A stretch of DNA of 64,000 bases from Candidatus Eiseniibacteriota bacterium (GTDB lineage: Bacteria; Eisenbacteria; RBG-16-71-46): NCBI GenBank assembly GCA_963776245.1, contig CAVZLN010000006.1, positions 5,215 to 69,214 on the forward strand. Reading direction: 5' to 3'. The notes beneath the pieces were generated by a model that saw only the letters and a list, made by a program, of their open reading frames with translations, was not told the DNA's origin and did not search any database. Positions 16,489 through 41,392 of this stretch are shown here, one piece after another. The stretch's first letter is position 1; each line of letters begins with the position of its first letter. The position numbers were made by a program, and so were the translations under genes.

Positions 16489-16795
16489 CGCGATGCCATC
16501 GCCGGTCACCGAGCGATGGGAGTCAGGGGGACGGGGCCTGGGCCCCGGTCGGATTCGCCGGTCGCTCACCGTGCGGCACGGGACTCACCGGCTCGAACTC
16601 CGCCGGCAGTGTAGCGCAGGAGCCGCCGCCTCACGAAGGGATTCCCGCGGCGTCCCGGAACCCGGTGCCCGGGTCGTTTTCCGTTGAATGCATCGCGCGC
16701 ACCATGCACACTGCTCGCGTCGATCGGGCCTCCACGAACTCGGCCGACGCGTCCATTCTGGGCGCGTGCGCCGGGCGGAACCCACACGAGGCCAA

Positions 16796-19225
16796 ATGGT
16801 CGCCGCGCTCCCGGTCCTCACGCTCCTGATCGTCCTTGCCGCACCGGTCGACACCTCCTCGCCACCGCCCGCACCTGCGGCACCGCCGGAGACCACCGCG
16901 GTCCACCCGCGCGTGGTGCGCACCTTCCCGCCCATCGAGGTGAGCGCCCTGCTTCCCGACATGCGCGCGAGCCAGACCGTGCACCTGATCCCGGGCGCCG
17001 TGCTGCACTCCTTCCCCGTGCACGACCTCGCGGACGTCATCGCCCTGCAACCGGGCGTGGTGGCACAGGCCGAGGAGCTCCACGTGCGGGGCGGTCGCGC
17101 GGGCGAGACCGTGGTGAGCATGGACGGCCTGAGCCTCAACGAGCCGCTGCGCCACCGCGCGATGGGAGTGCCCCTGCTCGCGTTGCGCGGAGCGGAACTG
17201 GTGACCGGCGCCCCCGAGGCGCGCTACGGCGGCGGACTCGCCGGGGTCCTGGATCTGCGCACCGTGGATCCCGCGCCGCGGCCATCGCTGGAGTGGCGCT
17301 GGACCAGCGACGGGCGGCGCGGCACGCACTACGACCGGGTCGCCGCGCGCGCGGGCACGCCGCTCCACGCGCTCGGGCTCGGCGTGGTGGCGGCGGCCGA
17401 CGCGACGCTCGACGACACCGCGTTGCCGATGCTGCGCACCGCGAGCCGGCACGAGGTGGCAGGCGGGTCGTTCGGGTGGCGGGCCGAGAACCGGATGCTC
17501 GGCTTCCTCAAGGTGGCTCCGGTGCGCGAACCCGAGCGTTACTCGGCGCAGCTGCTGGTCAGCCGCGGGGTGCACCGGCCCTACAACCCGAGCTGGTCCC
17601 TCGACGGCTGGACCTACGTGCCCGCGAATCTCAAGACCTCGCCGACCTTCAGTCCGGAGCCGCTGCCGGGTTACCAGCGCTACCGCGCCGCCGACCACCT
17701 CGCCATCACCGATGAACGACAGGCGGCCGCGCTGATCCGGGTCGCGACCCTGCACGAGCGCGGCCGCGGCAGCCTCGGCCTCGGATGGCTGCGGGCGCAG
17801 AGTGTCACCTCGGTCGGCGGCAGGCGCGAGCCGGCGAGCGCGGCGCATCGGCCGAAGTACGGGAAGCCGGTCGACCGCGATGGCTTCCATGTGCTGTGGG
17901 GCGACTACCCGCTCTACCGCGAGAGCGACTGCGACGTGCTCACGCTGCGGGGCGACGGCGAACTGCGCCGCAAGGACGGCAGCAGCGTGAGCAGCGGCGC
18001 GGGCCTCACCTACGAGTCGGTGTCCATGCGCGAGATGGATTGGATGCCGTTGACCATGCGCTCCGGGGACATCGGGCTGCCCCCGCCGCTGGATTCCCTC
18101 CGCAGCTATCGGGCGTACGCGCCCGGCGGGTACGCCTACGCCCAGGGTCGCTGGCTCAGCGGCGGGATGATCCTGAACGCCGGGCTGCGCACGGAGTACT
18201 TCACCCCGGGCCCGCAGGCCACGCAGCAGACCCTGCCGGGAAGCGCGGCCGGCATCTGGTCGTTCGCGCCCCGGCTCGGCCTGGCCTATCCCATCTCGGT
18301 GCGCGACGTGTTCTCGTTCGCGTACGTGCGCATGCAGCAGGCCCCGGGACGGGATTACCTGTACGACCAGCGCACCGCGATCAGCGATCGCCAGCCGCTC
18401 GGCAATCCGGCGCTCGGGCCGGCGACCCTGATCTCCTACGAGGCCGCGGTGAAGCACCTCGCCGGGCCCCGGTGGGCGATGCAGACCTCGGTGTTCTACC
18501 GCGACGTGTTCGGCCAGGTGGGCACGGTGGACCAGCAGATCGCGGAGGGCCCGATCAACCTGCGGTACGCCGGAGAGGATCAGAGCCACGTCTCGGGCTG
18601 GGAGCTGAGCGTGATCCACTCCGCGGCGCGCCGCCACCTCGAGGCGCACTACACGTGGATGGTCGCGGCGGGGAACGAGTCCCGTCCCGAGGGCGATCCG
18701 TACGGCCCGGTGCGCGCGGCGAACACCCCGGCGATCGGCACCCAGCCGCTGTCGTGGGATCGCCGCCACTCGTTCCTGTTCGCCGGCGCGTGGCAGTGGA
18801 GCCCGAGCGCATCGCTGGCCTGGTCCACCGCGCTGTCCTCGCCGCTGCCGTGGACGCCCAAGCAGCGGCGCCAGATGCTCACCGACCTCGGGCTCATCAA
18901 CAGCCGCCGTCTCGGGTGGACGGAGAACACCGATCTCGACCTGAGCTGGTCGCCGCGCCGCGCGCTCGGGCTCGCGTTCGGTCTCGAGGTCCGCAATCTG
19001 TGGAACGGTCGCGCGGAGCGCGCTGCGACCGTGGACGGCTACCCCAACCCGATCATCAACACGCTCTACGACGACTACGGCGCGTATCGCACCGAGACCG
19101 GGCTCGGAGGCGGCGCCTACTGGTCGCAGATGCCGGGCGAGGAGGGGCACTGGGTCCCGGTGCACGACGCGCGGCTCTACGCGCCCCCGCGCACGGTGCG
19201 GATGAGCGTCGGCGGGCGGTGGTGA
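16796..19225 (+). CDS. TonB-dependent outer-membrane receptor
   Basis: Signal peptide MVAALPVLTLLIVLAAP. Plug region HDLADVIALQPGVVAQAEELHVRGGRAGETVVSMDGLSLNEP. Long beta-barrel ending ...RTVRMSVGGRW (C-terminal aromatic residue). Confidence 0.8.
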   Translation: MVAALPVLTLLIVLAAPVDTSSPPPAPAAPPETTAVHPRVVRTFPPIEVSALLPDMRASQTVHLIPGAVLHSFPVHDLADVIALQPGVVAQAEELHVRGGRAGETVVSMDGLSLNEPLRHRAMGVPLLALRGAELVTGAPEARYGGGLAGVLDLRTVDPAPRPSLEWRWTSDGRRGTHYDRVAARAGTPLHALGLGVVAAADATLDDTALPMLRTASRHEVAGGSFGWRAENRMLGFLKVAPVREPERYSAQLLVSRGVHRPYNPSWSLDGWTYVPANLKTSPTFSPEPLPGYQRYRAADHLAITDERQAAALIRVATLHERGRGSLGLGWLRAQSVTSVGGRREPASAAHRPKYGKPVDRDGFHVLWGDYPLYRESDCDVLTLRGDGELRRKDGSSVSSGAGLTYESVSMREMDWMPLTMRSGDIGLPPPLDSLRSYRAYAPGGYAYAQGRWLSGGMILNAGLRTEYFTPGPQATQQTLPGSAAGIWSFAPRLGLAYPISVRDVFSFAYVRMQQAPGRDYLYDQRTAISDRQPLGNPALGPATLISYEAAVKHLAGPRWAMQTSVFYRDVFGQVGTVDQQIAEGPINLRYAGEDQSHVSGWELSVIHSAARRHLEAHYTWMVAAGNESRPEGDPYGPVRAANTPAIGTQPLSWDRRHSFLFAGAWQWSPSASLAWSTALSSPLPWTPKQRRQMLTDLGLINSRRLGWTENTDLDLSWSPRRALGLAFGLEVRNLWNGRAERAATVDGYPNPIINTLYDDYGAYRTETGLGGGAYWSQMPGEEGHWVPVHDARLYAPPRTVRMSVGGRW

Positions 19226-19297: not shown

Positions 19298-21115
19298 TCA
19301 GGGCGTTCCCGCGCGCGACCGGATGAAGAACTTCTTCTGTTCGAGCGCCGATGGAAGCGCGGGATCGTGCGCGAGCGCCGAGTCCACGTACGCCTCGGCG
19401 CGCACCGGATCGCCCGCGCCCATGGTCAGGTACCCGAGCCGCGACCAGGCCTGCGCGTGCACCGGCGAGACCGCCACCGTCTGGCGGAAGCGCTCCGCGG
19501 CCTCCTCGAGGCGGCGGGACTGCATGTACGCGAGGCCGGCCTGGTAGAGCAGGCGCGGGTTGGGACCGCCGCACTCGACCGCCTGGTCGAACAGTCTCGC
19601 CGCCCGATCGGGGTCGCCATCATTGAATGAGCGCGTGCCGAGAAAGTCGTAGGCCTGGGTCCGGGTCGCGGCGCTCCACGCCGGCCGGGCCTCGAGCAGC
19701 CTCATCAGGCGCCCCCGCGCCGCGGCGCCGTCCACGTGCAGCCACCACGTGGACGCGAGCACGGCGAGCGCGAAGGTGACCGCCGGCCCGAGCGTCGCGC
19801 GCGCCCCCCTGCCCTGCCAGCTCTCGACCAGCGCACCGGCCGTGAGGCAGGCGACCAATGTCCCCGCGCCGGTGGCGACGTCCCAGTCACGCGCCCATCC
19901 GCCCCCCGGCTCCACCCCCAGCAGCAACAGCATGAATCCGCCGATCGCGAGCGCCGCCGCGGGCGCGACCGAGAAGCGCGCGCCGGGCCGCGGAGCGCCG
20001 TGGCGTGCGCGCGCGCGCCACACCCCCCACGCGGCGGCGGCCCCCATCCACGACAATGGCACCAGGTAGGCGAGCGCGTTGAGCGCGTTCGAGACGCGCA
20101 CCAGCGCGTCCAGCGCGCCATGGTCCGCACGCGCCCTCGCGACGGTGCCGCCCGGCAGGTGGACGTTGCGATCGAAGTGGAGCGCGAGGTCGAGCGTGCG
20201 CGGGAACATCAGCGCGAACGCCGCCACCACGACGGCCGCCGCGCCCAGCACCTCGGCGCGCGCGCGCCCGCCGACCGCGCTGCGGTGGGCGCGGAACAGC
20301 GTCCACGCCAGCGCCGGCACCAGCAGATACGCCGAGCGGTGGGCCAGCGCCGCGATCGTCGCGCCGAGGGCCAGCGTCCAGACGCCGCGCCCGGTGCGGG
20401 CGAGCTGGACCGTGCCGAGCGCGGCGAGCACCAGCCCCACCATCAGCGGGCCGAACTTGTCGTAGCCGGCGAAGTGCACGACCAGCGCGCCCCCGGCGAG
20501 GGCGAGCGCGCCCGCCGGCAGGGCGCTGCCGCGCGCGCCGCAGGCACGCACGAACCGGATGCCGGCGAACAGGAACACCGCCCCGACCACGGCGCCCACC
20601 CGCTGGAGCGCCGCCTCGTCGCTCATCCCCGCCGACCTCAGCGCGCGCGGCAGCTCGAGATTCAGCAGGCGATCGAGCGGATAAGCCTGCGCCACCAGCG
20701 CCGGCGAGAGCTTGATCGTGCCGAGCATGCCGAGGCGCATGGCCGCGTCGCCGGGGAAGCGCAGCGGATCGCGCAGCGCGGCGAGGGCGGCCCCGCCCGC
20801 GACGCTCGCGACCAGATCGGCGAGGCGCCCGCCCCGCATCCACGCTTCGCCCAGCCACGCCGATCCGCGCTCCACGACGCGGGCCACCGGCGGGAGCCAG
20901 CCCGCGAGCGCCAGCGCGGCGAGCGCGAACGCCTCGGGTGCGGGCCGCGCCCGGAATCCATCCACTCCCCAGAGCCAGTTGGTGGACCACGCCATCGCCG
21001 CCAATCGCGCCGCGAGGCCGAGCGCGAGCGCGACGAACAGGGCCCGGGCCAGCGGCTCGGCGCTCGCCGCGGCCGGCACGGGGCGCGGAGGAACGGATGG
21101 GCGGCGGGCAGGCAT
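19298..21115 (-). CDS. polytopic membrane protein with C-terminal TPR repeats
   Basis: Multiple TM helices in the N-terminal two thirds. C-terminal TPRs (AARLFDQAVECGGPNPRLLYQAGLAYMQSRRLEEAAERFRQTVAVSPVHAQAWSRLGYL). Start is uncertain; the ORF extends to 21349. Confidence 0.5.
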   Translation of the reverse strand: MPARRPSVPPRPVPAAASAEPLARALFVALALGLAARLAAMAWSTNWLWGVDGFRARPAPEAFALAALALAGWLPPVARVVERGSAWLGEAWMRGGRLADLVASVAGGAALAALRDPLRFPGDAAMRLGMLGTIKLSPALVAQAYPLDRLLNLELPRALRSAGMSDEAALQRVGAVVGAVFLFAGIRFVRACGARGSALPAGALALAGGALVVHFAGYDKFGPLMVGLVLAALGTVQLARTGRGVWTLALGATIAALAHRSAYLLVPALAWTLFRAHRSAVGGRARAEVLGAAAVVVAAFALMFPRTLDLALHFDRNVHLPGGTVARARADHGALDALVRVSNALNALAYLVPLSWMGAAAAWGVWRARARHGAPRPGARFSVAPAAALAIGGFMLLLLGVEPGGGWARDWDVATGAGTLVACLTAGALVESWQGRGARATLGPAVTFALAVLASTWWLHVDGAAARGRLMRLLEARPAWSAATRTQAYDFLGTRSFNDGDPDRAARLFDQAVECGGPNPRLLYQAGLAYMQSRRLEEAAERFRQTVAVSPVHAQAWSRLGYLTMGAGDPVRAEAYVDSALAHDPALPSALEQKKFFIRSRAGTP

Positions 21116-21375
21116 GGGGACCGATGATAGGCGTCCGGTTCGCCCGCTGCCAGCCGGACGATGGAGGCGTCGCCGGCGGGCCGTGCCGGCGCGAATGCGG
21201 GCGGGTTCGCGGGGCGTCCGGTCGCGGCGCCGGGCTCCCCCCGGCGGGGCCGGGCGGGAAACGGCCGGCCGGCGCCTTCCCTGCGTGGCCCGCATCGAAT
21301 ATGTTCCATGCGACCGTCGGGCTGCCGCACGAGAGTCCTCGGGCGCCACCGGCTGGGAGCCAAGGAGAAGGAGCC

Positions 21376-22248
21376 ATGCGCAGACCTGTGCTGTTCACCC
21401 TCGTCGCCGTCATCCTGCTGCTGGTGGTCGCGACCTCCATCATGTTCGTGCGGTATCGGAAGTCCTCGGCGGACTACGTGGACATGAAGCTCCGCGAGGA
21501 GACGGCACGGACCGGATACGCCGAGGCCTTCAGCGCCGTCACCGAGATCCAGGACAGCCTCACCGCCCTCGCCCTCGGTGACACCGCGGTGCGGATGCTG
21601 AGCCGCAATCTCAACGACGAGCAGAAGCCGACGGCGATGCAGCGGCGCGAGGCGCTGGACCGCATCGCCTACCTCGGCGCGAGCATCCAGCGCAGCAAGG
21701 AGAAGCTCGCCCGGCTCGAGGCCAGCCTCGCGAAGAGCGGCCTCAAGGTCGCGAGCCTCCAGAACATGATCGGCTCGCTCAAGCAGTCGCTGGCCTACAA
21801 GGAGGCGATCGTCGCGACCCTCGCCGGGCGGGTGGATTCGCTGCAGACCCGCGTCGGCGGCCTGGAGACCGAGGTGCAGCAGGGCGCCGAGACGATCCGT
21901 GCCCGCGAGCAGACCATCGCCGAGACCCAGCGCGAGCTGGCGACCATCTACTACATCGTCGGCACCAAGAAGGCGCTCATCAACGCGGGCGTGCTCGAGG
22001 CCAAGGGCGGCATCCTCGAGCTCGGCAAGACCCTCCAGCTGTCGGGGCACTACACCGAGAGCCTGTTCACCCCGATGGACACCGACCGGGAGAGTGTCAT
22101 CCCCACCGCCGCGGCCCGGGTGCAGGTGATGAGCGCGCAGCCGAAGTCGAGCTACGAGGTGAGGACTGTCGACGGGCGTGCGGAGATCCACATCTTGGAT
22201 GCGAAGGAGTTCCGCAAGGTGAAGCACGCGGTGCTCATGACGCGCTAG
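21376..22248 (+). CDS. membrane-anchored coiled-coil protein of unknown function
   Basis: ATG at 21376 after aaggagaaggag. N-terminal TM helix MRRPVLFTLVAVILLLVVATSIMFV, then a long heptad-like segment (KEKLARLEASLAKSGLKVASLQNMIGSLKQSLAYKEAIVATLAGRVDSLQTRVGGLETEVQQ). Confidence 0.5.
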   Translation: MRRPVLFTLVAVILLLVVATSIMFVRYRKSSADYVDMKLREETARTGYAEAFSAVTEIQDSLTALALGDTAVRMLSRNLNDEQKPTAMQRREALDRIAYLGASIQRSKEKLARLEASLAKSGLKVASLQNMIGSLKQSLAYKEAIVATLAGRVDSLQTRVGGLETEVQQGAETIRAREQTIAETQRELATIYYIVGTKKALINAGVLEAKGGILELGKTLQLSGHYTESLFTPMDTDRESVIPTAAARVQVMSAQPKSSYEVRTVDGRAEIHILDAKEFRKVKHAVLMTR

Positions 22249-22257
22249 CGGCCGGGC

Positions 22258-23865
22258 TCAGAACCTCCAGCTCAGCCCGAGCTGGGCCTGACGCGTCGGA
22301 TCGGCGCCCCCGCGCTCGGCCTGGGCGTTGAGGTCGAGGTAGGCGCGGCGCGCCAGCATCAGCTCGAGGGCGGCGCTTGCCCAGCGCACCTCGTCCGCGA
22401 CCGATGATCCCACGTCCTCGCTGCGCCGGGTCCCGCCCGCGAGCTCGAGGTGCGCGCCCTCGAGTGGGTCGATGCCCGCTCCCACCGAGGTCAGCTGGTT
22501 CGCCAGCCCCGCCCCGCTGATGCGGGCATGGCGCGCACGCAGCGCGAGGTTGAACGCCCCGAGCCGGTAGGCATCCAGCCTCGTCGACCATCCGTTCTGG
22601 TCTGCTTCGCCGGCGACCGAACTGGTGCGCGCTTCGGCGCCGAGCCGGACGTGATTCGCGAGATCGAGCGTGCCCCCCGCCCACGCGCCGCGGCGGTACC
22701 GGTCGAGGAATCGGGTCTCCGGCGTCTCGTGGTCGCGATAGAGCCAGACGTTCCGACGGCTGTCGAGGCCCGCGAACACCGACAGCTCGGGGCTCGCCGC
22801 CGAGAGCGGCGTGGCGGCCCTGACGCGGTACGCCAGGTTGAGGTCGGTGCCGGTGGAGGTCAGCGCCGCGGACCCGGCGTCCCTTTTCCAGCCGCGGTTG
22901 TAGTCCACCTCCTGCTGGAGCGAAGCGGTCAGCCGGCGGTCCGCGTACGCGGCCTGCAGGAACCCGAAGTCGCGGTTCGGATGCCCGCGGTCGGACGACG
23001 TGATCGCGCCGCCGGACACCGAGTAGCGCGCGATGGCGGGGGCCGGCTGGTGCCACGACGCGTAACCGCCACCCTGCACGATGTGACCCGAGACCGCGAG
23101 TCGCGCGGGGTCCGGCTGGGTGCCGGCGAACAGGCCGAAGTCCCAACGCGCGCTCCGCGTCTCGGCCAGCGCGCCGTCGAACAGGTTCACCGGCGAGAGC
23201 GCCGGCGAGAGCAGGCGTCCCACCGTGAAGCGCCGGCGGTCCCCTGAATCCCGCACGCCGACCGAGGCGCGATAGACGAATCCGCGGTCGCGGGTGACCG
23301 ATACGGTTCCCGGGCGGCGGCTGACGAAGCGCCGGCCCCGAAAGTCGAGCGCCACGTCGAGCGGGCTCCCCCCCAGTCGTGTGCCCTCGATCCGGGCATC
23401 CACGGCGGGCTGCGAGAGCCGCACGCCGCCGTCGCTGGTCAGCCCGAGGTAGCGTGCGCCGATGCGGCCATGCAGACCGCCCGCGCGGGCCGCCGGGTGC
23501 GCGCGCGGGCCCGGTCGCGCGGCGCTGTCCGAGCCCGCCACGACGTTTCCCGCACCCGACGCGTCGCGCGCGTCCCCGGCGTGCGGCGTGAAGCTCGCCG
23601 CGTCCCCCGGCTGCACCACCGCCCACGTCTGCAGCGTGTCGCACGCCGCGCGATGCGAGGACAGGAACGACACCCGGAGCCACGCGATGGTGTGTCCCTC
23701 GCGCGTCACCTCGAGCGAGTCGCCCTCGCGGAGGCCGTCGTGCTGGCCGGCGTCCACGTAGACCGACCGGCCGGTGACGTAGTCCACCGTGGTGGCGGCA
23801 CGCTCGGCGCGCGCGCCCGCGGCGAACGGCGGAAGCATCGCGCCGATCGCCATCGCCATCCACAT
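22258..23865 (-). CDS. outer-membrane beta-barrel protein (porin-like), immediately downstream of the multiheme cytochrome
   Basis: Signal peptide MWMAMAIGAMLPPFAAGARA. Alternating hydrophobic beta-strand pattern throughout. C-terminus ...AQLGLSWRF with terminal Phe, typical of BAM-dependent outer-membrane proteins. Confidence 0.6.
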   Translation of the reverse strand: MWMAMAIGAMLPPFAAGARAERAATTVDYVTGRSVYVDAGQHDGLREGDSLEVTREGHTIAWLRVSFLSSHRAACDTLQTWAVVQPGDAASFTPHAGDARDASGAGNVVAGSDSAARPGPRAHPAARAGGLHGRIGARYLGLTSDGGVRLSQPAVDARIEGTRLGGSPLDVALDFRGRRFVSRRPGTVSVTRDRGFVYRASVGVRDSGDRRRFTVGRLLSPALSPVNLFDGALAETRSARWDFGLFAGTQPDPARLAVSGHIVQGGGYASWHQPAPAIARYSVSGGAITSSDRGHPNRDFGFLQAAYADRRLTASLQQEVDYNRGWKRDAGSAALTSTGTDLNLAYRVRAATPLSAASPELSVFAGLDSRRNVWLYRDHETPETRFLDRYRRGAWAGGTLDLANHVRLGAEARTSSVAGEADQNGWSTRLDAYRLGAFNLALRARHARISGAGLANQLTSVGAGIDPLEGAHLELAGGTRRSEDVGSSVADEVRWASAALELMLARRAYLDLNAQAERGGADPTRQAQLGLSWRF

Positions 23866-23890
23866 CCACCGGTTCACGGGGCGCCCCGGC

Positions 23891-24979
23891 TCAGTTGCCG
23901 GCCTGGCCGGAGGGGTGGCATCGGTAGCACGCGCTGCTGACGTACTGATAGCCGCCGACTCCACTGTGCCGCGGGGTGGTGTTGGCGCTGGTGTGACATC
24001 CGCCGGTCAGGCAGTTGAAGCTCGCGTAGTCGGTCGGCACGTCGTGGCAGGTGGTGCACGCGATGCCGGCATGGCGCCCGGAGACGATCGGGAAGAACGC
24101 GCCGTGGTCGAACGTCCAGCCGCACCGGCTCACGTCGTGGCAGGTGACGCACCGGGTCGAGAACCCGGCGGCGGCGTGATTCGGAGCCGCGGTGCCGTCG
24201 TAGGCCGCCCGATGGCAGGCGTAGCAGTCGGTGGGCGGTGAAGCCGTCCACGGATCGCCGTGGCATTGCACGCACGTCACCGGCGGCAGGTGCGGGCAGG
24301 TGAGCGGGAAACCGCTCGCCCCATGATCGAACCGGGCCGGCGACCACGTCATCATCGAGTGACAGCGCGTGCAATCGCTGGAGAAGTTCCGGTGATCGGG
24401 CACCGCGCCCGGGGTGTGACACGCGCGGCACGCCGCGGCCGTGCCGACGAATCGCAGGTGCCCCTGCGCCGTCGGCGGATGGCAGGACTCGCACTCGATC
24501 GCGCCGTGAGCACCGACCAGCGGGAAGCGCGTCATCTGGTGCATGCTCACCATCGCGGCGCGGTCGAGGAAGCTGCGCGCGGTGTGGCAGCGCCCGCAGT
24601 CGCCGCCGAATTCGCCGAGGTGCGGGTCCTGATGGCACGCGGCGCACTGCTTGCGCTGCTGCTCCGCGGTGAAGTCGAGCGAGGCGTGGCACGCCACGCA
24701 GCTCACCGAGGAGTGCGCGCCGGTGAGCGGGAACCCCGAGCGTTTGGCGTGGTTGAAGCGCCGGCTGATGCGCGCGGGCTTCCAGCCCTGGTCGCCGTGG
24801 CACTCCGCGCAGTCGCCGGTGAACCGCCCGTGGGGATACGCGGGCTCGCCGGGCGGCGCGGCGGCCGGCCGATCGGCCACCGCGCCGGCCAGTCCCGACG
24901 CCACGAGCATCAGCGCGAGGACCGCCGGCGCTGCGCGGCGCGCCGGCAGCCTCCGCGGGACGCGACCTTCGAGTTCCAC
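23891..24979 (-). CDS. multiheme c-type cytochrome (12 CxxCH motifs plus one CX4CH)
   Basis: CAECH, CVACH, CAACH, CGRCH, CESCH, CRACH, CTRCH, CVQCH, CYACH, CVTCH, CTTCH, CLTGGCH, CYRCH in 362 aa. N-terminal signal peptide. Confidence 0.85.
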   Translation of the reverse strand: MELEGRVPRRLPARRAAPAVLALMLVASGLAGAVADRPAAAPPGEPAYPHGRFTGDCAECHGDQGWKPARISRRFNHAKRSGFPLTGAHSSVSCVACHASLDFTAEQQRKQCAACHQDPHLGEFGGDCGRCHTARSFLDRAAMVSMHQMTRFPLVGAHGAIECESCHPPTAQGHLRFVGTAAACRACHTPGAVPDHRNFSSDCTRCHSMMTWSPARFDHGASGFPLTCPHLPPVTCVQCHGDPWTASPPTDCYACHRAAYDGTAAPNHAAAGFSTRCVTCHDVSRCGWTFDHGAFFPIVSGRHAGIACTTCHDVPTDYASFNCLTGGCHTSANTTPRHSGVGGYQYVSSACYRCHPSGQAGN

Positions 24980-25031
24980 GCGTGACCTCCGGGGGGATTC
25001 GGACCCGGTCGGCCCGGGCCCACACCGGACC

Positions 25032-27118
<2,087 letters not shown>

Positions 27119-27363
27119 GGAGACATCCTCCGGGGGTTGGCGATCGCGGGTACCGGTGCGCGGGCATCCTAGCGCGAGTCGGGCGCCGGTGCACCGTCGA
27201 GCGCGCTGCGGCGCGACCCGCGCCGGTCCCGGGACGCGAGGGCCGGGGCATCCGTGCGTCCCGCCGCCGGTGGTGATAGTCTGATTCCGACCCCCCGAAG
27301 CACCGGCGCCGGTCGGTTCCGTCACGCCGGCCCGGCTCGCGCAGTACCCTTCGAACCCCGTGC

Positions 27364-28149: not shown

Positions 28150-29328
28150 GGCCGGTCGCGATCGTGGGTGTGGGCTCGACCCAGTTCGGCCGGGCACAGT
28201 GGAGCCTGCTCAAGATGATGTGCGAGGCGTCGCACGACGCGCTCGTGGACGGCGGGGTCGGCGATCGCAAGGTGGACGCGGTCTACGTCGCCAACATGGG
28301 CGCCCCTCGCAACAACAAGATGGCCGGGCTCGCCAGCGCGCTGGTGGACCGGATGAACCTGTATCCCGCCGGCGCGGAGACCATCGAGAACGGGCCCGCC
28401 TCGGGCGCGTCGGCGCTCAAGCACGGCGTGCACGCCATCGCGTCGGGCCATTGCGACCTCGTGCTGGTGTGCGGCGGCGAGCGCATGCAGGAGGTGAACA
28501 ACTTCGAGGCCACCGAGTTCGTCTCGTACCTCTCGCACCGCTACGCCGAGTACGTGTACGGCGTCACCCTGCCGTCGCTGGCGGGGATGTTCGCGCGCCT
28601 CTACATGGACCGCTACGGTGTCACGCCCGAGCACCTGGCGATGGTGGCGATCAAGAACCACGCGAACGGCGCGCTGAACAAGAAGGCCCACTTGCGCATC
28701 CCGATCACGATGGAGGGCATCCTCACGGGGCCCGACGCGTGGAACAACAACCCGTGGATCGCCGACCCGCTGCGCTTCTTCGATTGCTGCCCGGTGAGCG
28801 ACGGCGCCTCGGCGGTGCTGCTCGCGCCGGCCGAGAAGGCGAAGGACTTCCACAAGAAGCCGGTGCTGGTGGCCGGAATCGGTCAGGCGACCGACACCCA
28901 CGCGGTGCACGAGCGCGAGGATCCGACCGAGCTGACGGCGGTGCGCCTCGCGGCGCAGAAAGCGTTCGCGATGGCCGGCCGGCGCCGACGGACATCCAGG
29001 TCGCCGAGCTGCACGACGCCTTCACCATCCTCGAGATCGCGGAGAGCGAAGAGGCCGGGTTCTTCGCCCGGGGCGAGGGGCACAAGGCGCTCGAGCGCGG
29101 CGAGACCAAGATCGGCGGCCGCCTCCCGATCAACCCCTCGGGCGGCCTCAAGTCGAGCGGCCATCCGGTCGGCAACACCGGCGTTTCCCAGATCGTCGAG
29201 CTGGTCCTCCAGTTGCGCGGGGAGGCGGGCGATAGCAGGTCCCGAACCAGCCCCAGCACGGGTTCGCGGTCAACTTCGGTGGCTTCGGCAACAACGTGCT
29301 CGCCACCGTGCTCAAGCGGGGGGTGTGA
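28146..29328 (+). CDS. SCP-x/nsLTP-type thiolase (DUF35-partnered), with 2 apparent frameshifts (about 28975 and 29230)
   Basis: [16 protein letters not shown]...[32 protein letters not shown] (ORF 27360 frame); [21 protein letters not shown]...[36 protein letters not shown] (ORF 28199 frame); [21 protein letters not shown] (third frame, stop at 29326-29328). Confidence 0.75.
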
Positions 29329-29329
29329 C

Positions 29330-29668
29330 ATGCCACGCGACGTCGAAGCCGCGAAGTGCAGGAAGTGCGGCACGCTCTCCTACCCGACCCACTTCTACTG
29401 CCGCTCGTGCAAGGGCACGAAGTTCGAGCCGGTGCCGGTCACGGGGGAAGGCAAGCTCCTCACCTGGACCAAGGTGTACGCGCTGCCGCTGGACTACGAG
29501 GATCTCTACATCACCCTCGGCATCGTCGAGCTCGACATGGGGGTGCGCGCCACCGGCCGGCTCGAGATGGCCGAGCCCCGCATCGGCGCGCGGGTGCGCG
29601 CCCGGGTCGGCAAGGTGCGCGAGACGGCCGGGAAGGACATCACGGGGCTGATCTTCAGCGCGGTATGA
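29330..29668 (+). CDS. DUF35 Zn-ribbon/OB-fold protein (thiolase partner subunit)
   Basis: [20 protein letters not shown] (Zn ribbon) followed by an OB-fold-like segment [39 protein letters not shown]. Confidence 0.7.
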
Positions 29669-29774
29669 ACGCATGCGGTCCGCCTCGCCGCGACCGTCGT
29701 CGCGGCGAGGCCGGGCGGCTCTGGAGCGGCGCGCACCACGCCGGCACGGGCGCGCGGCGGCGCGCTCGCGGAGG

Positions 29775-30641
29775 ATGGACATGAGCGGATTTCGTTACGA
29801 ACGGCCGGAGAGCATCGCCGCGGCGACCGCGCTCCTCGCCGCGTCTCCCGGACGCGCCTGCGTGCTGGCCGGCGGGACCGACCTGATGGTGGCGCTGCGC
29901 GCGGGCTCGGTGTGCCCCGACGTGGTCGTGGACATCAAGCGCATCCCGGGCCTCTCGGATCTCACCTGGGGCGCCGACGGAAGTCTCGCGATCGGCGCGT
30001 GCGTGATCGTGCAACGCGTCGCGGACGACCCGCGGCTGCGCGCCACGTTCCCGGCGCTCGCGGAGGGCGCCGCGGAGATCGGCTCGCTCCAGATCCGCTC
30101 CCGCGCCACCATCGCCGGGAACCTGGTGAACGCCTCGCCGTGCATGGACACCGCGCCCGGCCTGCTGGTCCACGACGCACGGCTGCGCATCGAGGGCCCG
30201 CGCGGCCGGCGCGAGGCGCCGCTGTCCGACTTCTTCGTCGGGGTGCGCCGGAACGCGCTCCTGCCGGGCGAGATGGTGACCGCAGTGGTGGTTCCCGCGC
30301 CCGCGAAGGACGTGCGCAGCGGCTTCGACAAGATCAAGCGCGTCTCGGGTCACGACCTCGCGCTGGTGAACGCGGCCGCCGCGTGGAGCCCCGCGGAGGC
30401 CACCCTGCGGGTCGCGATCGGATCGTGCGCGATCACCCCCGCGCTGGTGCCGGTGCTCGCCGGCGTGGGACCGGAAACCGATCCCGACGACGCGGGACGC
30501 CGGCTCGGCGCCCTGGCGCTCCAGCACATCCAGCCCATCGACGACGTGCGCGCTTCGGCCGAGTACCGGCGCGACATGACGCTCGCGCTGTGCATGAGGC
30601 TCGCCCGGCGCCTGCTCGGCGGGCCGCGGAGATCGTCATGA
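29775..30641 (+). CDS. FAD-binding (medium) subunit of a xanthine-dehydrogenase/CO-dehydrogenase-family molybdoenzyme
   Basis: VLAGGTDLMVALRAG...IKRIPGL...GACV...ATIAGNLVNASPCMDTAPGLL...DVRASAEYRRDM (CoxM/XdhB-like). No Cys-rich 4Fe-4S insertion, so not an HcrB-type subunit. Confidence 0.8.
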   Translation: MDMSGFRYERPESIAAATALLAASPGRACVLAGGTDLMVALRAGSVCPDVVVDIKRIPGLSDLTWGADGSLAIGACVIVQRVADDPRLRATFPALAEGAAEIGSLQIRSRATIAGNLVNASPCMDTAPGLLVHDARLRIEGPRGRREAPLSDFFVGVRRNALLPGEMVTAVVVPAPAKDVRSGFDKIKRVSGHDLALVNAAAAWSPAEATLRVAIGSCAITPALVPVLAGVGPETDPDDAGRRLGALALQHIQPIDDVRASAEYRRDMTLALCMRLARRLLGGPRRSS

Positions 30642-33499
30642 AGACCTATCCGATCACCCTCACGATCAACGGCGAGAAGACGGCGCTCGAGGTGCCCGCC
30701 GGGCGCACGCTGCTCGAACTCCTCAAGGGCGAGCTGCACCAGCCGAGCGTGAAGGGCGGCTGCGGCATCGGCGAGTGCGGCCTCTGCACGGTGATCCTCG
30801 ACGGCCTGCCGGTCAACGCCTGCCTGGTGATGGCGGCCGAGGTCGATGGTGCCGTGATCGAGACCGCCGAGGGCGCGATGCAGGAGCTGGGCGTGATGTC
30901 CGACCTGCAGCGGGCGTTCGTGGACTTCGGCGCGGTGCAGTGCGGCTTCTGCACTCCGGGCATGCTCAATTCCGCGCGCGCCCTCCTGCAGCGGACCCCG
31001 CGACCGACGCGCGAGCAGATCGTCGAGGCGCTGGCCGGGAACTACTGCCGGTGCACCGGCTACGAGCCGCTGGTGGACGCGGTCGAAGCGGTGGCGCGCG
31101 GCGGGTACACCGCGGCGGCCCCGCTGGCGTCGCCGTACGTCGGCGGCGCCGCGAATCGCGTGGACGCGGCGGCCAAGGTGACCGGCTCCGCGACCTTCGT
31201 GCACGACATGGTCCTGCCGGGGATGCTGCACGCGCGCATCCTGACCTCGCCGCACGCGTCGGCGCGCATCCGCGCGATCGACACCTCGAAGGCGCGCCGG
31301 ATGCCGGGCGTGCGCGCGGTGCTGACCGGGGCCGACCTGCCGTACAAGGTCGGACTCTACATGGAGGACAAGGACATCCTCGCGCGCGGCGTCGTGCGCC
31401 ACCAGGGCGAAGCGGTGGCCGCGGTGGCCGCGGACACCGTGGCGCAGGCGAGCGCGGCGTGCGCGGCGATCGAGGTGGACTACGAAGGGCTCGAGCCGCT
31501 CACCGACGTCCACCAGGCCCTCGCCGAGGGCGCGCGTCAGGTGCACCCCGGGATCGCGGACTACTCGTGGATGAAGGGCGTGTTCTTCCCGGAGCCCGGC
31601 AAGAACGTCGCCCACCATCAGAAGATCCGCAAGGGGGACATCGAGAAGGGCATGGCCGCGGCCGACCGCGTGTTCGAGTTCCACTTCGAGAATCCCCCCG
31701 CGCCCCACGTGCCGATGGAGACCCACACCGCGATCGCCACCGCGCGCGGCGATGGCGAGGTGGAGATCATCACTTCCGCCCAGTCCCCGTTCGCGGTGCG
31801 TCATCTGTTCTGCCACGCGTTCGCGATGCCGCTGCACAAGGTGCGGGTGAAGGTCCCGTACGTGGGCGGCGGCTTCGGCGGCAAGGCGGGGATCCATCTG
31901 GAGCCGCTGGTGTACTGCCTGTCGAAGGCCGCGCGCGGGCGCCCGGTCAAGATCGTGGCTTCGCGCGAGGAGGAGTTCAACACCCTCCCCTCCCGCCAGG
32001 GGCTCTCGAGCGTCATCAAGACCGGCGTGACGAAGGATGGCCGGCTGGTGGCGCTCGACGTCACCTACCTGTGGGACGCCGGCGCCTACGCGGACTACGG
32101 CGTCAACATCGGCCGCGCCGCCGCCTACGCGGGGGCCGGTCCGTACGTGGTGCCGCATTGCCGGGTGGACTCGCTGGTGGTGTACACCAACAAGGTGTTC
32201 GGCACCGCGTACCGCGGCTTCGGCCATCTCGAGGTGCTGTGGGGGATCGAGCGCAACATGGACCTGGTGGCGCACGCGCTCGGCATGGACCCGGTGGAGT
32301 TCCGCCGCAGGAACCTGCTGCGCGTCGGCGAGACCACCATCACCGGCGAGCTGTTCACCGAGGGCCACGGGCGCCCCGAGGAGTGCCTGCGGCTGGTGTC
32401 CGAGGGAATCGGCTGGGATCCCGCGCAGCGGGCGGCGCGCCCGGTCAAGCCCGGCAGCGGGAAGGTGCGCGCAAAGGGCATCGCGATGCTCCACAAGGCG
32501 CCCGCCATGCCCACCTTCACCTCGAGCTCGGCCACCATCCTGTTCAACGGCGACGGTTCCGCGAACGTGCTGGTCTCGGGCGTGGATTACGGGCAGGGCA
32601 CGTACACGACGTTCGCGCAGATCGCGGCGGACGAGCTGAGGATCCCGCTCGAGAAGGTGCGCGTGCCGTGGGACAGCGATACCGACTACACGCCGTACGA
32701 CTGGCAGACGGTGGCGAGCCGTCTCACGGTGATGGGCGGCAACGCCATCATCATGGCGGCGAAGGAATGCATGGACCAGATCCGCGCCACCGCCGGCGCC
32801 GCGCTGCACGCGGCGCCCGAGATGATCGAGTGCGGGAACGGCAGGGCGTGGGTCCGGGGCCGGCCCGGCACGGCGCTGGACTACAGCCAGCTCGTGCTCG
32901 GGTACGTGTTCCCCGACGGCTCGAGCATCGGGGGCCCGGTGATCGGCAAGGGCCGCTACATCGCGACCGGGCTCACCAATCTCGATCCCCAGACCGGACA
33001 GGGCCTGCCCGCGCTCAACTGGACCTACGGCGCGCACGCGGTGGACGTCGAGGTCGACACCGACACCGGTCACATCCGCGTGCTCAAGGTGGTCTCGGCG
33101 TTCGACGTCGGCCGGGTGCTCAACGCCCAGCAGGCGAAGGCGCAGGTGGTGGGCGGCGTGGTGCAGGGAGTGGGCTCGGCGGTGATCGAGAAACTGGTGT
33201 TCGAGGACGGGCGCATGCTGAACAACTCGTTCGTCGATCTCAAGATCCCGACCGCCAAGGACGTCCCCACCGAGATGGTGCAGCTGTTCGTCGAGACGCC
33301 ACACCCGCAGGGCCCCTATGGCGCGCGCGGGCTGGCCGAGCACCCGATGATCTCGATCCCGAGCGCGATCGGGAACGCGGTCGCCAACGCGACCGGCGTC
33401 GAGTTCTTCGAGCTGCCCCTCGATCCCGAGCGCGTCTATCTCACACTCAAGCGGGCGGCCGCTGCGCCGAAGCCGGCGCTCAGCGCCACGCACCGGTAG
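30638..33499 (+). CDS. molybdoenzyme with the [2Fe-2S] small subunit fused N-terminally to the molybdopterin-binding large subunit (xanthine dehydrogenase/aldehyde oxidoreductase family)
   Basis: N-terminus KGGCGIGECGLCTV...QCGFCTPGM...NYCRCTGY (two 2Fe-2S motifs) continues without a stop into AKVTGSATFVHDM...VGGGFGGK...the large-subunit MoCo domain. ATGA overlap with the FAD subunit stop. Confidence 0.8.
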   Translation: MKTYPITLTINGEKTALEVPAGRTLLELLKGELHQPSVKGGCGIGECGLCTVILDGLPVNACLVMAAEVDGAVIETAEGAMQELGVMSDLQRAFVDFGAVQCGFCTPGMLNSARALLQRTPRPTREQIVEALAGNYCRCTGYEPLVDAVEAVARGGYTAAAPLASPYVGGAANRVDAAAKVTGSATFVHDMVLPGMLHARILTSPHASARIRAIDTSKARRMPGVRAVLTGADLPYKVGLYMEDKDILARGVVRHQGEAVAAVAADTVAQASAACAAIEVDYEGLEPLTDVHQALAEGARQVHPGIADYSWMKGVFFPEPGKNVAHHQKIRKGDIEKGMAAADRVFEFHFENPPAPHVPMETHTAIATARGDGEVEIITSAQSPFAVRHLFCHAFAMPLHKVRVKVPYVGGGFGGKAGIHLEPLVYCLSKAARGRPVKIVASREEEFNTLPSRQGLSSVIKTGVTKDGRLVALDVTYLWDAGAYADYGVNIGRAAAYAGAGPYVVPHCRVDSLVVYTNKVFGTAYRGFGHLEVLWGIERNMDLVAHALGMDPVEFRRRNLLRVGETTITGELFTEGHGRPEECLRLVSEGIGWDPAQRAARPVKPGSGKVRAKGIAMLHKAPAMPTFTSSSATILFNGDGSANVLVSGVDYGQGTYTTFAQIAADELRIPLEKVRVPWDSDTDYTPYDWQTVASRLTVMGGNAIIMAAKECMDQIRATAGAALHAAPEMIECGNGRAWVRGRPGTALDYSQLVLGYVFPDGSSIGGPVIGKGRYIATGLTNLDPQTGQGLPALNWTYGAHAVDVEVDTDTGHIRVLKVVSAFDVGRVLNAQQAKAQVVGGVVQGVGSAVIEKLVFEDGRMLNNSFVDLKIPTAKDVPTEMVQLFVETPHPQGPYGARGLAEHPMISIPSAIGNAVANATGVEFFELPLDPERVYLTLKRAAAAPKPALSATHR

Positions 33500-40049: not shown

Positions 40050-40330
40050 GAGCACCGATCGCGGTCTCAGATACACACCGGGACACTCCCTGGGGGGGGC
40101 CAGTGGGAACGCGACGGTGCCGGGACGCACGTTCGCCCGGCGGGACGGCTATAAGCGTACGGCGGCCCGGGGGTTTCCGCCAGCGGCGCCATCCGGACCG
40201 GCCGGCGCCACGCGGGGCCGGGCCGGCGGCGGTCCCCCGGCGCGAATCCCCCGTTGACCAACGAACGTTCGTTCGTTAACGTCCGCGGGTCGGGAGCCCC
40301 CCAGCTTCCCTGTCGCCGCGAGGTCCGCGC

Positions 40331-41392
40331 ATGAACGCTCCTGTCGCGTATTTCCTCGACGCGCCCGCCGCACCGCTGGTGCCGCGCGCGCTCGAGCTGG
40401 CCCCGCCCGGGCCCGGCGAGGCCGTCGTCGAGGTCCTCGCCTGCGGCCTGTGCCACACCGACCTCGGGTTCGCCGACGGCTCGGTGCGCCCCAATCACGC
40501 GCTTCCCCTGGTGCTCGGCCACGAGGTCGTGGGCACCGTCACCGCGACCGGGGACGGCGTGACGCTGAAGACCGGCACCCGCGTCATCGTGCCCGCGGTG
40601 CTGCCGTGCGGCACGTGCGCGTTCTGCCGCGCGGGCCGCGGGAACGCCTGCCCCTCGCAGAAGATGCCCGGCAACGACATCCACGGCGGCTTCGCCACCC
40701 ACCTGCTGGTGCCGGCCGCCCCGCTGGTCTCGCTCGACGGTCTGCCCGCGGGCGTGGACGTCCGGATGCTCTCGGTGGTGGCCGACGCGGTCTCGACCGC
40801 GTACCAGGCGGTGCGCCGCGCGGACCTCAAGGCCGGGGATGTCGCGTTCGTCGTCGGCGCGGGCGGCGTGGGCGGATTCGTCACCCAGATCGCGCACGCC
40901 ATGGGCGCACGGGTCGCGGTGTGCGACGTGCAGCCGGCCCGCCTCGCGCAGTTGCTCGCCCACGGCGCCGCGCACACCGCGGACGTCCGTGATCGCACGC
41001 CCCAGGAGGTCCGCAAGGAGCTGCACGCGCTGGCGCGCGGATGGGACGTGCCCTCGCTGCGCTGGCGCGTCTTCGAGTGCAGCGGGAGCCCCGCCGGGCA
41101 GACGCTCGCCTTCGGGCTCCTCTCCCGCGGCGCGACCCTGCTGCAGGTGGGCTACACCATCCAGACGGTGGAGGTGCGCCTCTCCAACCTGATGGCGTTC
41201 GACGCCACCATTCACGGCACCTGGGGCTGTCCGCCGGAGGCGTATGCCGATGTGCTGCGCCTGATCGCCGAGGGCAAGGTGGCGCTCGAGCCGTTCGTCG
41301 AGCACGCGCCGATGTCCTCGATCAACGAACTGCTCGACGCCCTGGCGCATCACCGGCTGGAGCGCCGCATGATCCTCGACCCTCGCCGCTAG
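40331..41392 (+). CDS. had: Zn-dependent medium-chain alcohol dehydrogenase; candidate 6-hydroxycyclohex-1-ene-1-carbonyl-CoA dehydrogenase
   Basis: GLCHTD and GHEVVGTV zinc-ADH signatures, GxGxxG NAD fold (VVGAGGVGGFV). Sits immediately upstream of oah and dch homologues. Confidence 0.65.
   Translation: MNAPVAYFLDAPAAPLVPRALELAPPGPGEAVVEVLACGLCHTDLGFADGSVRPNHALPLVLGHEVVGTVTATGDGVTLKTGTRVIVPAVLPCGTCAFCRAGRGNACPSQKMPGNDIHGGFATHLLVPAAPLVSLDGLPAGVDVRMLSVVADAVSTAYQAVRRADLKAGDVAFVVGAGGVGGFVTQIAHAMGARVAVCDVQPARLAQLLAHGAAHTADVRDRTPQEVRKELHALARGWDVPSLRWRVFECSGSPAGQTLAFGLLSRGATLLQVGYTIQTVEVRLSNLMAFDATIHGTWGCPPEAYADVLRLIAEGKVALEPFVEHAPMSSINELLDALAHHRLERRMILDPRR

Follow-up and report, generated by a model that had tools for sequence, protein, structure and literature searches.

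The stretch of DNA analyzed here (the window) covers 64 kb of contig CAVZLN010000006.1 from a Candidatus Eiseniibacteriota bacterium. It has a G+C content of 72% and encodes a multiheme c-type cytochrome and, directly downstream on the same strand, an outer-membrane beta-barrel protein. The question raised by this locus is whether the two proteins form a conduit for electrons across the outer membrane and, if so, which of the known systems it resembles. The original prediction, made from the letters of the window, was that of a porin-cytochrome module similar to MtrAB, MtoAB and PioAB. We find that the pair is probably the core, at the outer membrane, of a PCC3-type conduit in which porin and cytochrome together carry electrons. 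It represents a PCC3-like system, widespread and still without a name, in reduced form, and is not of the Mtr type.

A word-indexed search returned 153 homologues of the barrel, and an exhaustive profile search extended the family to 2,822 clusters (50% identity) at an E-value limit of 0.001, 839 of them within 1e-30. Genomic loci were scanned in one genome per species. Barrel relatives were detected at 264 loci. The best 80 all belong to metagenome-assembled genomes (MAGs) named Eisenbacteria, Gemmatimonadota, Acidobacteriota or, for a few of them, "uncultured bacterium", and the nearest relatives of the window barrel (51-55% identity) are named Eisenbacteria. Wherever more than 1.5 kb of DNA was available upstream (65 loci, duplicates excluded), a co-directional gene for a multiheme cytochrome directly precedes the barrel gene. 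Our script flagged 58 of these 65; the other seven fell beyond its 500-nucleotide cut-off, distance being taken from the start of the BLAST match, and the cytochrome was present in each. Moreover, 41 of the 44 loci with more than 8 kb of upstream DNA carry a full set of five genes, encoding an inner-membrane protein, a flavoprotein, a cytochrome with 20 or 23 CxxCH motifs, the barrel-adjacent cytochrome and the barrel. Because the neighbourhood of barrel and cytochrome is conserved to this extent, both as a pair and as a full cluster, the proposal of a porin-cytochrome module is supported; we regard this conservation as the decisive evidence.

The accessory proteins of the full clusters have well-defined features. 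The inner-membrane protein (about 300 amino acids) contains two WX3HX13H motifs and SGxxG, the published signature of the PCC3/PCC4 inner-membrane protein (PMC5566968); both WX3HX13H motifs were confirmed at three loci (L001, L002 and L004) and in the Emticicia cluster described below. The flavoprotein (about 480 amino acids) has a membrane helix at its N-terminus, together with a zinc ribbon, two 4Fe-4S sites and an NAD(P)/FAD domain resembling that of YpdA and thioredoxin reductase. Its gene adjoins that of the di-heme-type inner-membrane protein, at L004 (3929-6314) and at the equivalent positions in 41 of 44 loci. By analogy, the two proteins resemble a split transmembrane reductase of the NOX/FRE type that would feed the cytochromes. 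A relative of the inner-membrane protein is also encoded on a Methylophaga pinxianii plasmid (NZ_CP095734.1; L086, 9938-13292), where the genes on either side are those of a 2Fe-2S protein and of a small cytochrome c. No barrel is found at this locus and a ccm operon lies close by, indicating that the membrane module also exists without an outer-membrane part.

The complete barrel-adjacent cytochromes most often contain 13, 16 or 19 CxxCH motifs (12, 15 and 12 loci, respectively). Counts of 10, 22, 25, 28, 31, 49 and 61 were also obtained, as well as 40 in Emticicia. Across loci L001-L084 the heme numbers follow, with few exceptions, a 1+3n series, and the proteins are conserved at both ends and expanded in the middle. 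Since 13 is among the three commonest counts, the cytochrome of the window is no fragment.

Analysis of the open reading frame (ORF) and motif counting confirmed the cytochrome as it had been described, namely a secreted protein of 362 amino acids with 12 CxxCH motifs and one CX4CH motif. The CxxCH motifs are located at residues 57, 94, 112, 128, 163, 184, 203, 236, 252, 277, 308 and 351. The protein contains 27 His, and of its 28 Cys the 26 that belong to heme motifs are invariant across 50 homologues. The CX4CH site is also present in the closest relatives, at L004 and L085, its Cys, Cys and His columns are invariant, and it aligns with the CX4CH site of the cytochrome c3 from Desulfomicrobium (1aqe). 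The triheme units into which most of the protein can be parsed (Table 1) resemble one another with pairwise z values of 4.4-7.7 against shuffles, and heme density is high, with 25.2 residues per heme in the mature cytochrome and 27.8 in the whole protein. In Pfam, the cytochrome matched Cytochrome_C7 (8e-14), Cytochrom_c3_2 and Cytochrom_CIII, and the matches among PDB sequences were weak and of c3 type (c3, GSU1996/3OV0, high-molecular-weight, nonaheme and reaction-centre cytochromes). No nitrite-reductase or hydroxylamine-oxidoreductase family was matched in the Pfam or PDB sequence searches. Thus the concern expressed beforehand, that the cytochrome might group with such enzymes, can be set aside in favor of c7/c3-type families only. 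NCBIfam gave no match for the window cytochrome; the nanowire_3heme model was matched by 5 of its 50 relatives.

The downstream gene likewise encodes what had been proposed, a barrel protein of the outer membrane ending in Phe: its C-terminus, at 22258, reads ...LGLSWRF. The AlphaFold2 model (pLDDT 85.3, pTM 0.71) confidently predicts a 22-strand outer-membrane barrel with a tethered N-terminal domain. In this domain Y29, Y36, G40, C75 and D88 are invariant. At the other end of the protein R534 and F535 are at least 90% conserved, and we take the terminal aromatic residue to be the barrel-insertion (BAM) signal. No porin model in Pfam or NCBIfam matched the window barrel (Pfam barrel families were searched at E 0.1), and at E 0.01 no porin, OmpA, MtrB_PioB or other barrel or transporter family of Pfam was matched by 61 members of the barrel family. 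With 22 strands, compared with 8, 16 or 18 in OmpA-like proteins and general porins, and no porin match in 61 members, the protein is not the general porin or OmpA-like protein that had been envisaged as an alternative. The one recurrent Pfam match, FlgT_C, was weak and confined to the N-terminal domain of 14 of the 61 members, and a profile search of PDB sequences gave nothing significant. The barrel ORF contains no CxxCH and a single Cys, C75 (535-residue numbering; 23641-23643, minus strand). No substitution of this residue occurs in 61 homologues, Emticicia has it too, and the cytochrome offers no conserved free Cys to pair with it. It could be a heme ligand or form a disulfide with another partner.

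Several start codons are available for the barrel gene. GTG at 23877, located 13 nucleotides past the cytochrome stop, is preferred, as it gives by reading of the translation the most convincing signal peptide, MNRWMWMAMAIGAMLPPFAAGARA with cleavage before E. The alternatives are ATG at 23865 (535 amino acids) and GTG at 23964 (568 amino acids), and the public gene call is 531 amino acids long. Only GTG 23964 makes the barrel gene overlap with the cytochrome gene, by 74 nucleotides. The slight overlap originally reported for the 535-residue form therefore does not exist, since 25 nucleotides separate the cytochrome stop from ATG 23865. Both ORFs are full length relative to their homologues.

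Among the 44 loci with more than 8 kb of upstream DNA, a two-gene state similar to that of the window is confined to L085 and L078. L085, on a 1.16-Mb contig, displays the order alpha/beta hydrolase, 13-heme cytochrome, 532-residue barrel and CopD. Its cytochrome has the 12+1 motif pattern of the window, and identity to the window proteins is about 54% for the barrel and 63% for the cytochrome, with no similarity between the flanks outside the pair. L078 lies on a Terriglobia contig (CAVVHE010000004.1) which also holds a full cluster, L075. L031 is a possible third case, in an Acidobacteria MAG that also has a near-full cluster, L057. In a neighbour-joining tree of the barrels, the window and L085 are sisters and stand beside the Eisenbacteria clade of full clusters; L078 and L075 form a pair, as do L031 and L057. 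In the last two cases the reduced copy groups with the fuller cluster of its own genome, which points to repeated, lineage-specific duplication; judging from these sequences, copying of the cytochrome-barrel core seems to have produced minimal pairs on at least three occasions. Moreover, a 13-heme gene that stands alone directly behind the barrel of the full cluster L004 is among the closest relatives of the window cytochrome, which share 63-67% identity with it. Gene order and trees show that the linkage of barrel and cytochrome is strict and ancient, and that the two have been duplicated together. The pair in the window is most likely a rare, derived two-gene version of the five-gene system. 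As the window holds the core pair only, its periplasmic electron partner would be either encoded elsewhere or generic.

Used as a query, the inner-membrane protein also led to plasmid pEMTOL02 of the Bacteroidota isolate Emticicia oligotrophica DSM 17448. A full cluster is present there, in the order CcsA, a 281-residue hypothetical protein with both WX3HX13H motifs, an NAD(P)-binding protein (the FeS flavoprotein), two cytochromes and a 538-residue hypothetical protein. The cytochromes, annotated as "cytochrome c3 family", contain 23 and then 40 hemes (1+3x13). A tblastn search of the barrel against plasmids gave no match, and the Emticicia homologue was reached only via the inner-membrane protein; the 538-residue protein was nevertheless assigned to the barrel family by hhalign (probability 98.6%, E 1e-15, 405 aligned columns) and keeps the N-domain Cys and a YDNRRNV motif. 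Nothing linking Emticicia to multiheme cytochromes was found in the literature searched. The presence of the full cluster on a plasmid of a cultured bacterium makes the family open to genetics.

Among described systems, PCC3 is the closest in organization. He et al. 2017 (PMC5566968) predicted it in Alpha-, Beta- and Gammaproteobacteria, Sideroxydans and Leptothrix among them, and a survey of Gallionellaceae is also available (PMC9900912). It consists of a porin and an inner-membrane protein together with two cytochromes, one described as "extracellular" (10-85 hemes) and one periplasmic (21-27 hemes), with 22-39 residues per heme (PMC5566968). The published Leptothrix cholodnii PCC3 comprises a porin with 22 predicted transmembrane regions and cytochromes of 24 and 22 hemes (27-30 residues per heme), and some PCC3 porins are predicted to have up to about 40 strands. 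The literature searched contained no biochemical test of PCC3. In both PCC3 and the present system, the barrel gene adjoins the gene of a repeat-built, heme-dense cytochrome (25-28 residues per heme here) whose heme number varies among organisms, and the 22 strands of the window barrel model equal the 22 transmembrane regions of the L. cholodnii porin. Two further likenesses concern the relatives of the window only: a second cytochrome of 20-23 hemes, compared with 21, 24 or 27 in PCC3, and the inner-membrane protein of about 300 amino acids with two WX3HX13H motifs and SGxxG. In contrast to PCC3, the window contains the cytochrome and the barrel only, without second cytochrome or inner-membrane protein; the hosts are Eisenbacteria, Gemmatimonadota, Acidobacteriota and Bacteroidota instead of Proteobacteria; and the relatives add the NAD(P)-binding FeS flavoprotein, which is outside the four components listed by He et al. 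On the basis of its layout, we call the system PCC3-like. No description of the cluster in Gemmatimonadota or Eisenbacteria was found in the literature searched. In Acidobacteriota, the EET1 and EET2 clusters of a peat preprint, which comes without sequences, may overlap with the barrel family. While the kind of system is known, no description of the barrel family, the modular heme rule, the two-gene form or the cultured host was found in the literature searched.

The likeness to MtrAB, MtoAB and PioAB concerns the layout and the cytochromes. The order of genes is the same, cytochrome then barrel, co-directional and close, and the cytochrome is secreted and not a lipoprotein. TIGR03508, the model of DmsE/MtrA decaheme cytochromes, is matched by 41 of 50 cytochrome relatives with E-values down to 8e-10; the 24-heme cytochrome of L004 scored 39.5 bits (cut-off 192 bits), and the window cytochrome did not reach E 0.01. 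In contrast, none of the 61 barrel family members matched MtrB_PioB, and the window cytochrome is built of triheme repeats carrying 13 hemes instead of being a decaheme protein. The MtrB barrel has 26 strands. A homologue of MtrAB, MtoAB or PioAB was rejected by every test run (Pfam, NCBIfam, PDB profile search and strand count). The likeness in gene order that was originally noted stands; neither window protein matched MtrB_PioB or TIGR03508.

The comparison with Geobacter concerns the build of the cytochrome. The window cytochrome may be a chain of c7-type triheme domains like the poly-c7 "nanowire" dodecaheme protein GSU1996 (PDB 3OV0), to which its sequence similarity is weak and not significant (E 0.028). 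In Geobacter the dodecaheme cytochrome ExtA is paired with the porin-like ExtB, and the window cytochrome is similarly paired with a porin-like protein. Unlike the OmbB-OmaB-OmcB and ExtABCD systems, the window has neither an outer-surface lipoprotein cytochrome nor an octaheme partner of OmaB type. A Cyc2-type fusion of one N-terminal heme and a barrel in a single polypeptide was rejected: the barrel has no CxxCH and the 13-heme cytochrome is a separate protein. Finally, the full clusters of the relatives share with NOX/FRE ferric reductases a cytoplasmic NAD(P)-binding flavoprotein and a membrane protein with two paired-His (HX13H) helices, and He et al. likened the HX13H motif to the ferric-reductase domain (PMC5566968). 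They differ in that the two are separate proteins, with two 4Fe-4S clusters inserted and with multiheme cytochromes and a barrel following; the window has none of the flavoprotein or membrane-protein genes.

On this basis the following mechanism can be proposed. The 13-heme cytochrome would be exported by the Sec pathway and receive its hemes in the periplasm, where one N-terminal heme and four c7-like triheme units would make up a thin wire of hemes, about 10 nm in length or longer. GSU1996 has a length of roughly 12 nm, and by analogy with this protein and MtrA a chain of 13 hemes would be long enough to span the outer membrane. Lying in or passing through the lumen of the 22-strand barrel, the wire would allow electrons to hop from heme to heme across the membrane, while the tethered N-terminal domain of the barrel would stay periplasmic and might provide a docking site. 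The core would, in most relatives, be fed by the membrane-anchored NAD(P)-binding FeS flavoprotein, the inner-membrane WX3HX13H protein (di-heme b type) and the periplasmic cytochrome of 20-23 hemes, so that a full cluster would provide a chain from a cytoplasmic reductant to the cell surface. For the full clusters only, the presence of an NAD(P)-binding flavoprotein favors a flow of electrons outward from a cytoplasmic reductant. We infer that the cytochrome lodges in or threads the barrel, as well as its location in the envelope, the direction of electron flow and the substrate.

Several observations weigh against a conduit. Tblastn with the L004 proteins and a motif scan did not find the inner-membrane protein, the flavoprotein or the second cytochrome in the window, and the best 120 matches of the L004 inner-membrane protein included none on a contig of the size of the window's own (902,951 bp). 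This negative result covers that contig, and other contigs of the genome may still encode the partners. The 20-heme cytochrome of L004 matched only the cytochrome gene already described. Among ORFs of at least 60 amino acids in all frames of the window, there was no second one with more than one CxxCH; 40280-41389, considered as a candidate second cytochrome for its single CxxCH, was rejected as the ORF is a zinc alcohol dehydrogenase. The structural data are also unfavorable in part. The AlphaFold2 model of the cytochrome is weak (pLDDT 67) and found no PDB match with Foldseek. The barrel model resembles generic large barrels at TM-scores of 0.3-0.46, PapC/FimD ushers first, then OprD/Occ channels and AlgE, and MtrB is not among the 50 Foldseek matches listed. 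With 22 strands the barrel is narrower than that of MtrB; standard barrel geometry applied to the model would give a C-alpha diameter near 40 Å. The N-terminal domain could be a plug. In addition, genes neighbouring the pair are frameshifted in this assembly. Lastly, Emticicia is an aerobic heterotroph, indicating that the system does not necessarily serve to reduce metals in respiration.

The strongest of the other explanations, which we nevertheless consider unlikely, takes the barrel, instead of a lasting insulating sheath, for an usher-like pore dedicated to export and anchoring, which would place the cytochrome on the surface and then be closed by the N-terminal domain, with electrons taking another route. 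The usher folds at the head of the Foldseek results (PapC/FimD translocation pores) and the tethered N-terminal domain are in agreement with such a pore, the PCC3 authors predicted the barrel-adjacent cytochrome to be extracellular, and cytochromes of up to 49-61 hemes (more than 1,200-1,500 amino acids) are too long to fit within the barrel. The TM-scores to ushers are however low and generic for large barrels. Moreover, minimal pairs have one cytochrome and no other outer-membrane conduit nearby, and a wire at the surface still needs a path through the membrane, for which a lodged cytochrome is the simplest solution.

A smaller chance is given to the absence of any conduit: the cytochrome would be a periplasmic electron store or carrier, and the barrel a co-expressed channel for a substrate, metal or organic compound. 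This explanation draws on the indirect nature of the evidence for a place of the cytochrome in the membrane, on the cluster in Emticicia, an aerobe, and on a TonB-dependent receptor about 3 kb away in the window. It fits poorly with an adjacency of 65 out of 65 across MAGs of Eisenbacteria, Gemmatimonadota and Acidobacteriota, found again in the Bacteroidota isolate, with duplication of the pair as a unit in separate lineages and its retention while the flanks differ, and with 61 barrel members lacking a transporter family signature. Least probable is a decaying, non-working leftover of a duplicated full cluster, as suggested by the three partner genes not found in the window, the frameshifted neighbours and the rarity of minimal pairs (2 of 44 well-flanked loci and the window), since neither ORF is shortened, the 26 heme-motif Cys and the family-invariant residues of both proteins are all kept, ribosome-binding site and gene coupling are good, and the identity of about 54% (barrel) and 63% (cytochrome) to the sister pair L085 implies long maintenance.

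A broader and much more tentative reading joins the observations together. The roughly 2,800 clusters, known from MAGs named Eisenbacteria, Gemmatimonadota and Acidobacteriota and from a Bacteroidota isolate, might represent a major uncharacterised trans-envelope system for electron export in soil and sediment bacteria. A split NOX-like module (FeS flavoprotein and di-heme membrane protein) might send electrons of NAD(P)H outward, bypassing the quinone pool, along a poly-triheme wire of adjustable length (1+3n, 10 to 61 hemes) held in a 22-strand barrel; the two-gene form of the window might then be a self-sufficient minimal conduit that budded off several times.

A good understanding of extracellular electron transfer is confined to a few Proteobacteria and Desulfuromonadia. 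The present barrel family is very large, and neither Pfam nor NCBIfam has a model for it. The phyla in which it accompanies multiheme cytochromes are abundant in soils, and few or none of their members have been cultured. Should the family be a true conduit, its gene could serve to mark, in those phyla, the exchange of electrons with minerals, with humic substances or with other cells. The two-gene form would be small enough for testing in a heterologous host, and the 1+3n heme series would provide natural wires of differing length.

Table 1. Positions of the cytochrome and barrel genes and of their parts in the window, and of the Emticicia cluster.
Feature	Position	Strand	Basis
Cytochrome c gene, 362 amino acids, secreted, 13 heme sites (12 CxxCH + 1 CX4CH)	23891..24979	-	ORF and motif count
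Ribosome-binding site GGAGG, 6-nucleotide spacer to the cytochrome GTG start	24986..24990	-	Read from sequence
Sec-type signal peptide of the cytochrome, residues 1-34, probable cleavage between ...LAGA and VADR, no lipobox Cys	24878..24979	-	Read from translation; cleavage site inferred
One-heme N-terminal segment with family-invariant PHG motif (P49, H50, G51)	24761..24877	-	Homologue alignment, unit parsing
Four tandem c7-like triheme units, about 72 amino acids each, FPLxGxH...CxxCH...CxxCH...CxxCH	23894..24760	-	Unit alignments
CX4CH heme site CLTGGCH, residue 323, 12th heme position	23993..24013	-	Motif count
Outer-membrane protein gene, preferred GTG start 23877, 539 amino acids	22258..23877	-	ORF and start-codon reading
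Small N-terminal beta domain, about 70 amino acids (model residues 23-92), probably periplasmic	23590..23799	-	AlphaFold2
Low-complexity disordered linker, residues 98-126, pLDDT <50	23488..23574	-	AlphaFold2
Predicted 22-strand transmembrane beta-barrel, residues 131-534, mostly pLDDT >90, C-terminal ...SWRF	22261..23475	-	AlphaFold2
Emticicia full five-gene cluster, next to CcsA	L087 11914-20610 = NC_018749.1 81299-89995		Annotation and homology

The genes around the pair were read from the same window. A scan for sigma-70 promoters and terminators gave nothing useful near the pair. Upstream, an S9 peptidase gene is located on the same strand (25049-27121, minus), at the place where it had been noted; the gene is broken, with PD40 propeller, S9 core and C-terminus in different frames (at least three). 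A thiolase-like gene further on (28161-29668, plus), which has a C-terminal zinc-ribbon/OB part, also shifts frame. These frame changes point to indel errors of the assembly or to pseudogenes, one or the other of which seems to be present around the pair; the cytochrome and barrel genes themselves are intact. On the other side, a Cbp1-family gene for a coiled-coil, lipoprotein-like product (about 21400-22248, plus; NF052320, 111.9 bits, cut-off 90) converges on the barrel gene, with 9 nucleotides between the stop codons. Beyond it are genes for a TPR membrane protein (19298-21349, minus) and the TonB-dependent receptor (16688-19225, plus). Finally, the ORFs at 29673-33499 (plus) have, from their translations only, the look of a three-part molybdenum hydroxylase with FAD-binding, 2Fe-2S and large subunits, of the kind that had earlier been tied to aromatic-CoA metabolism.

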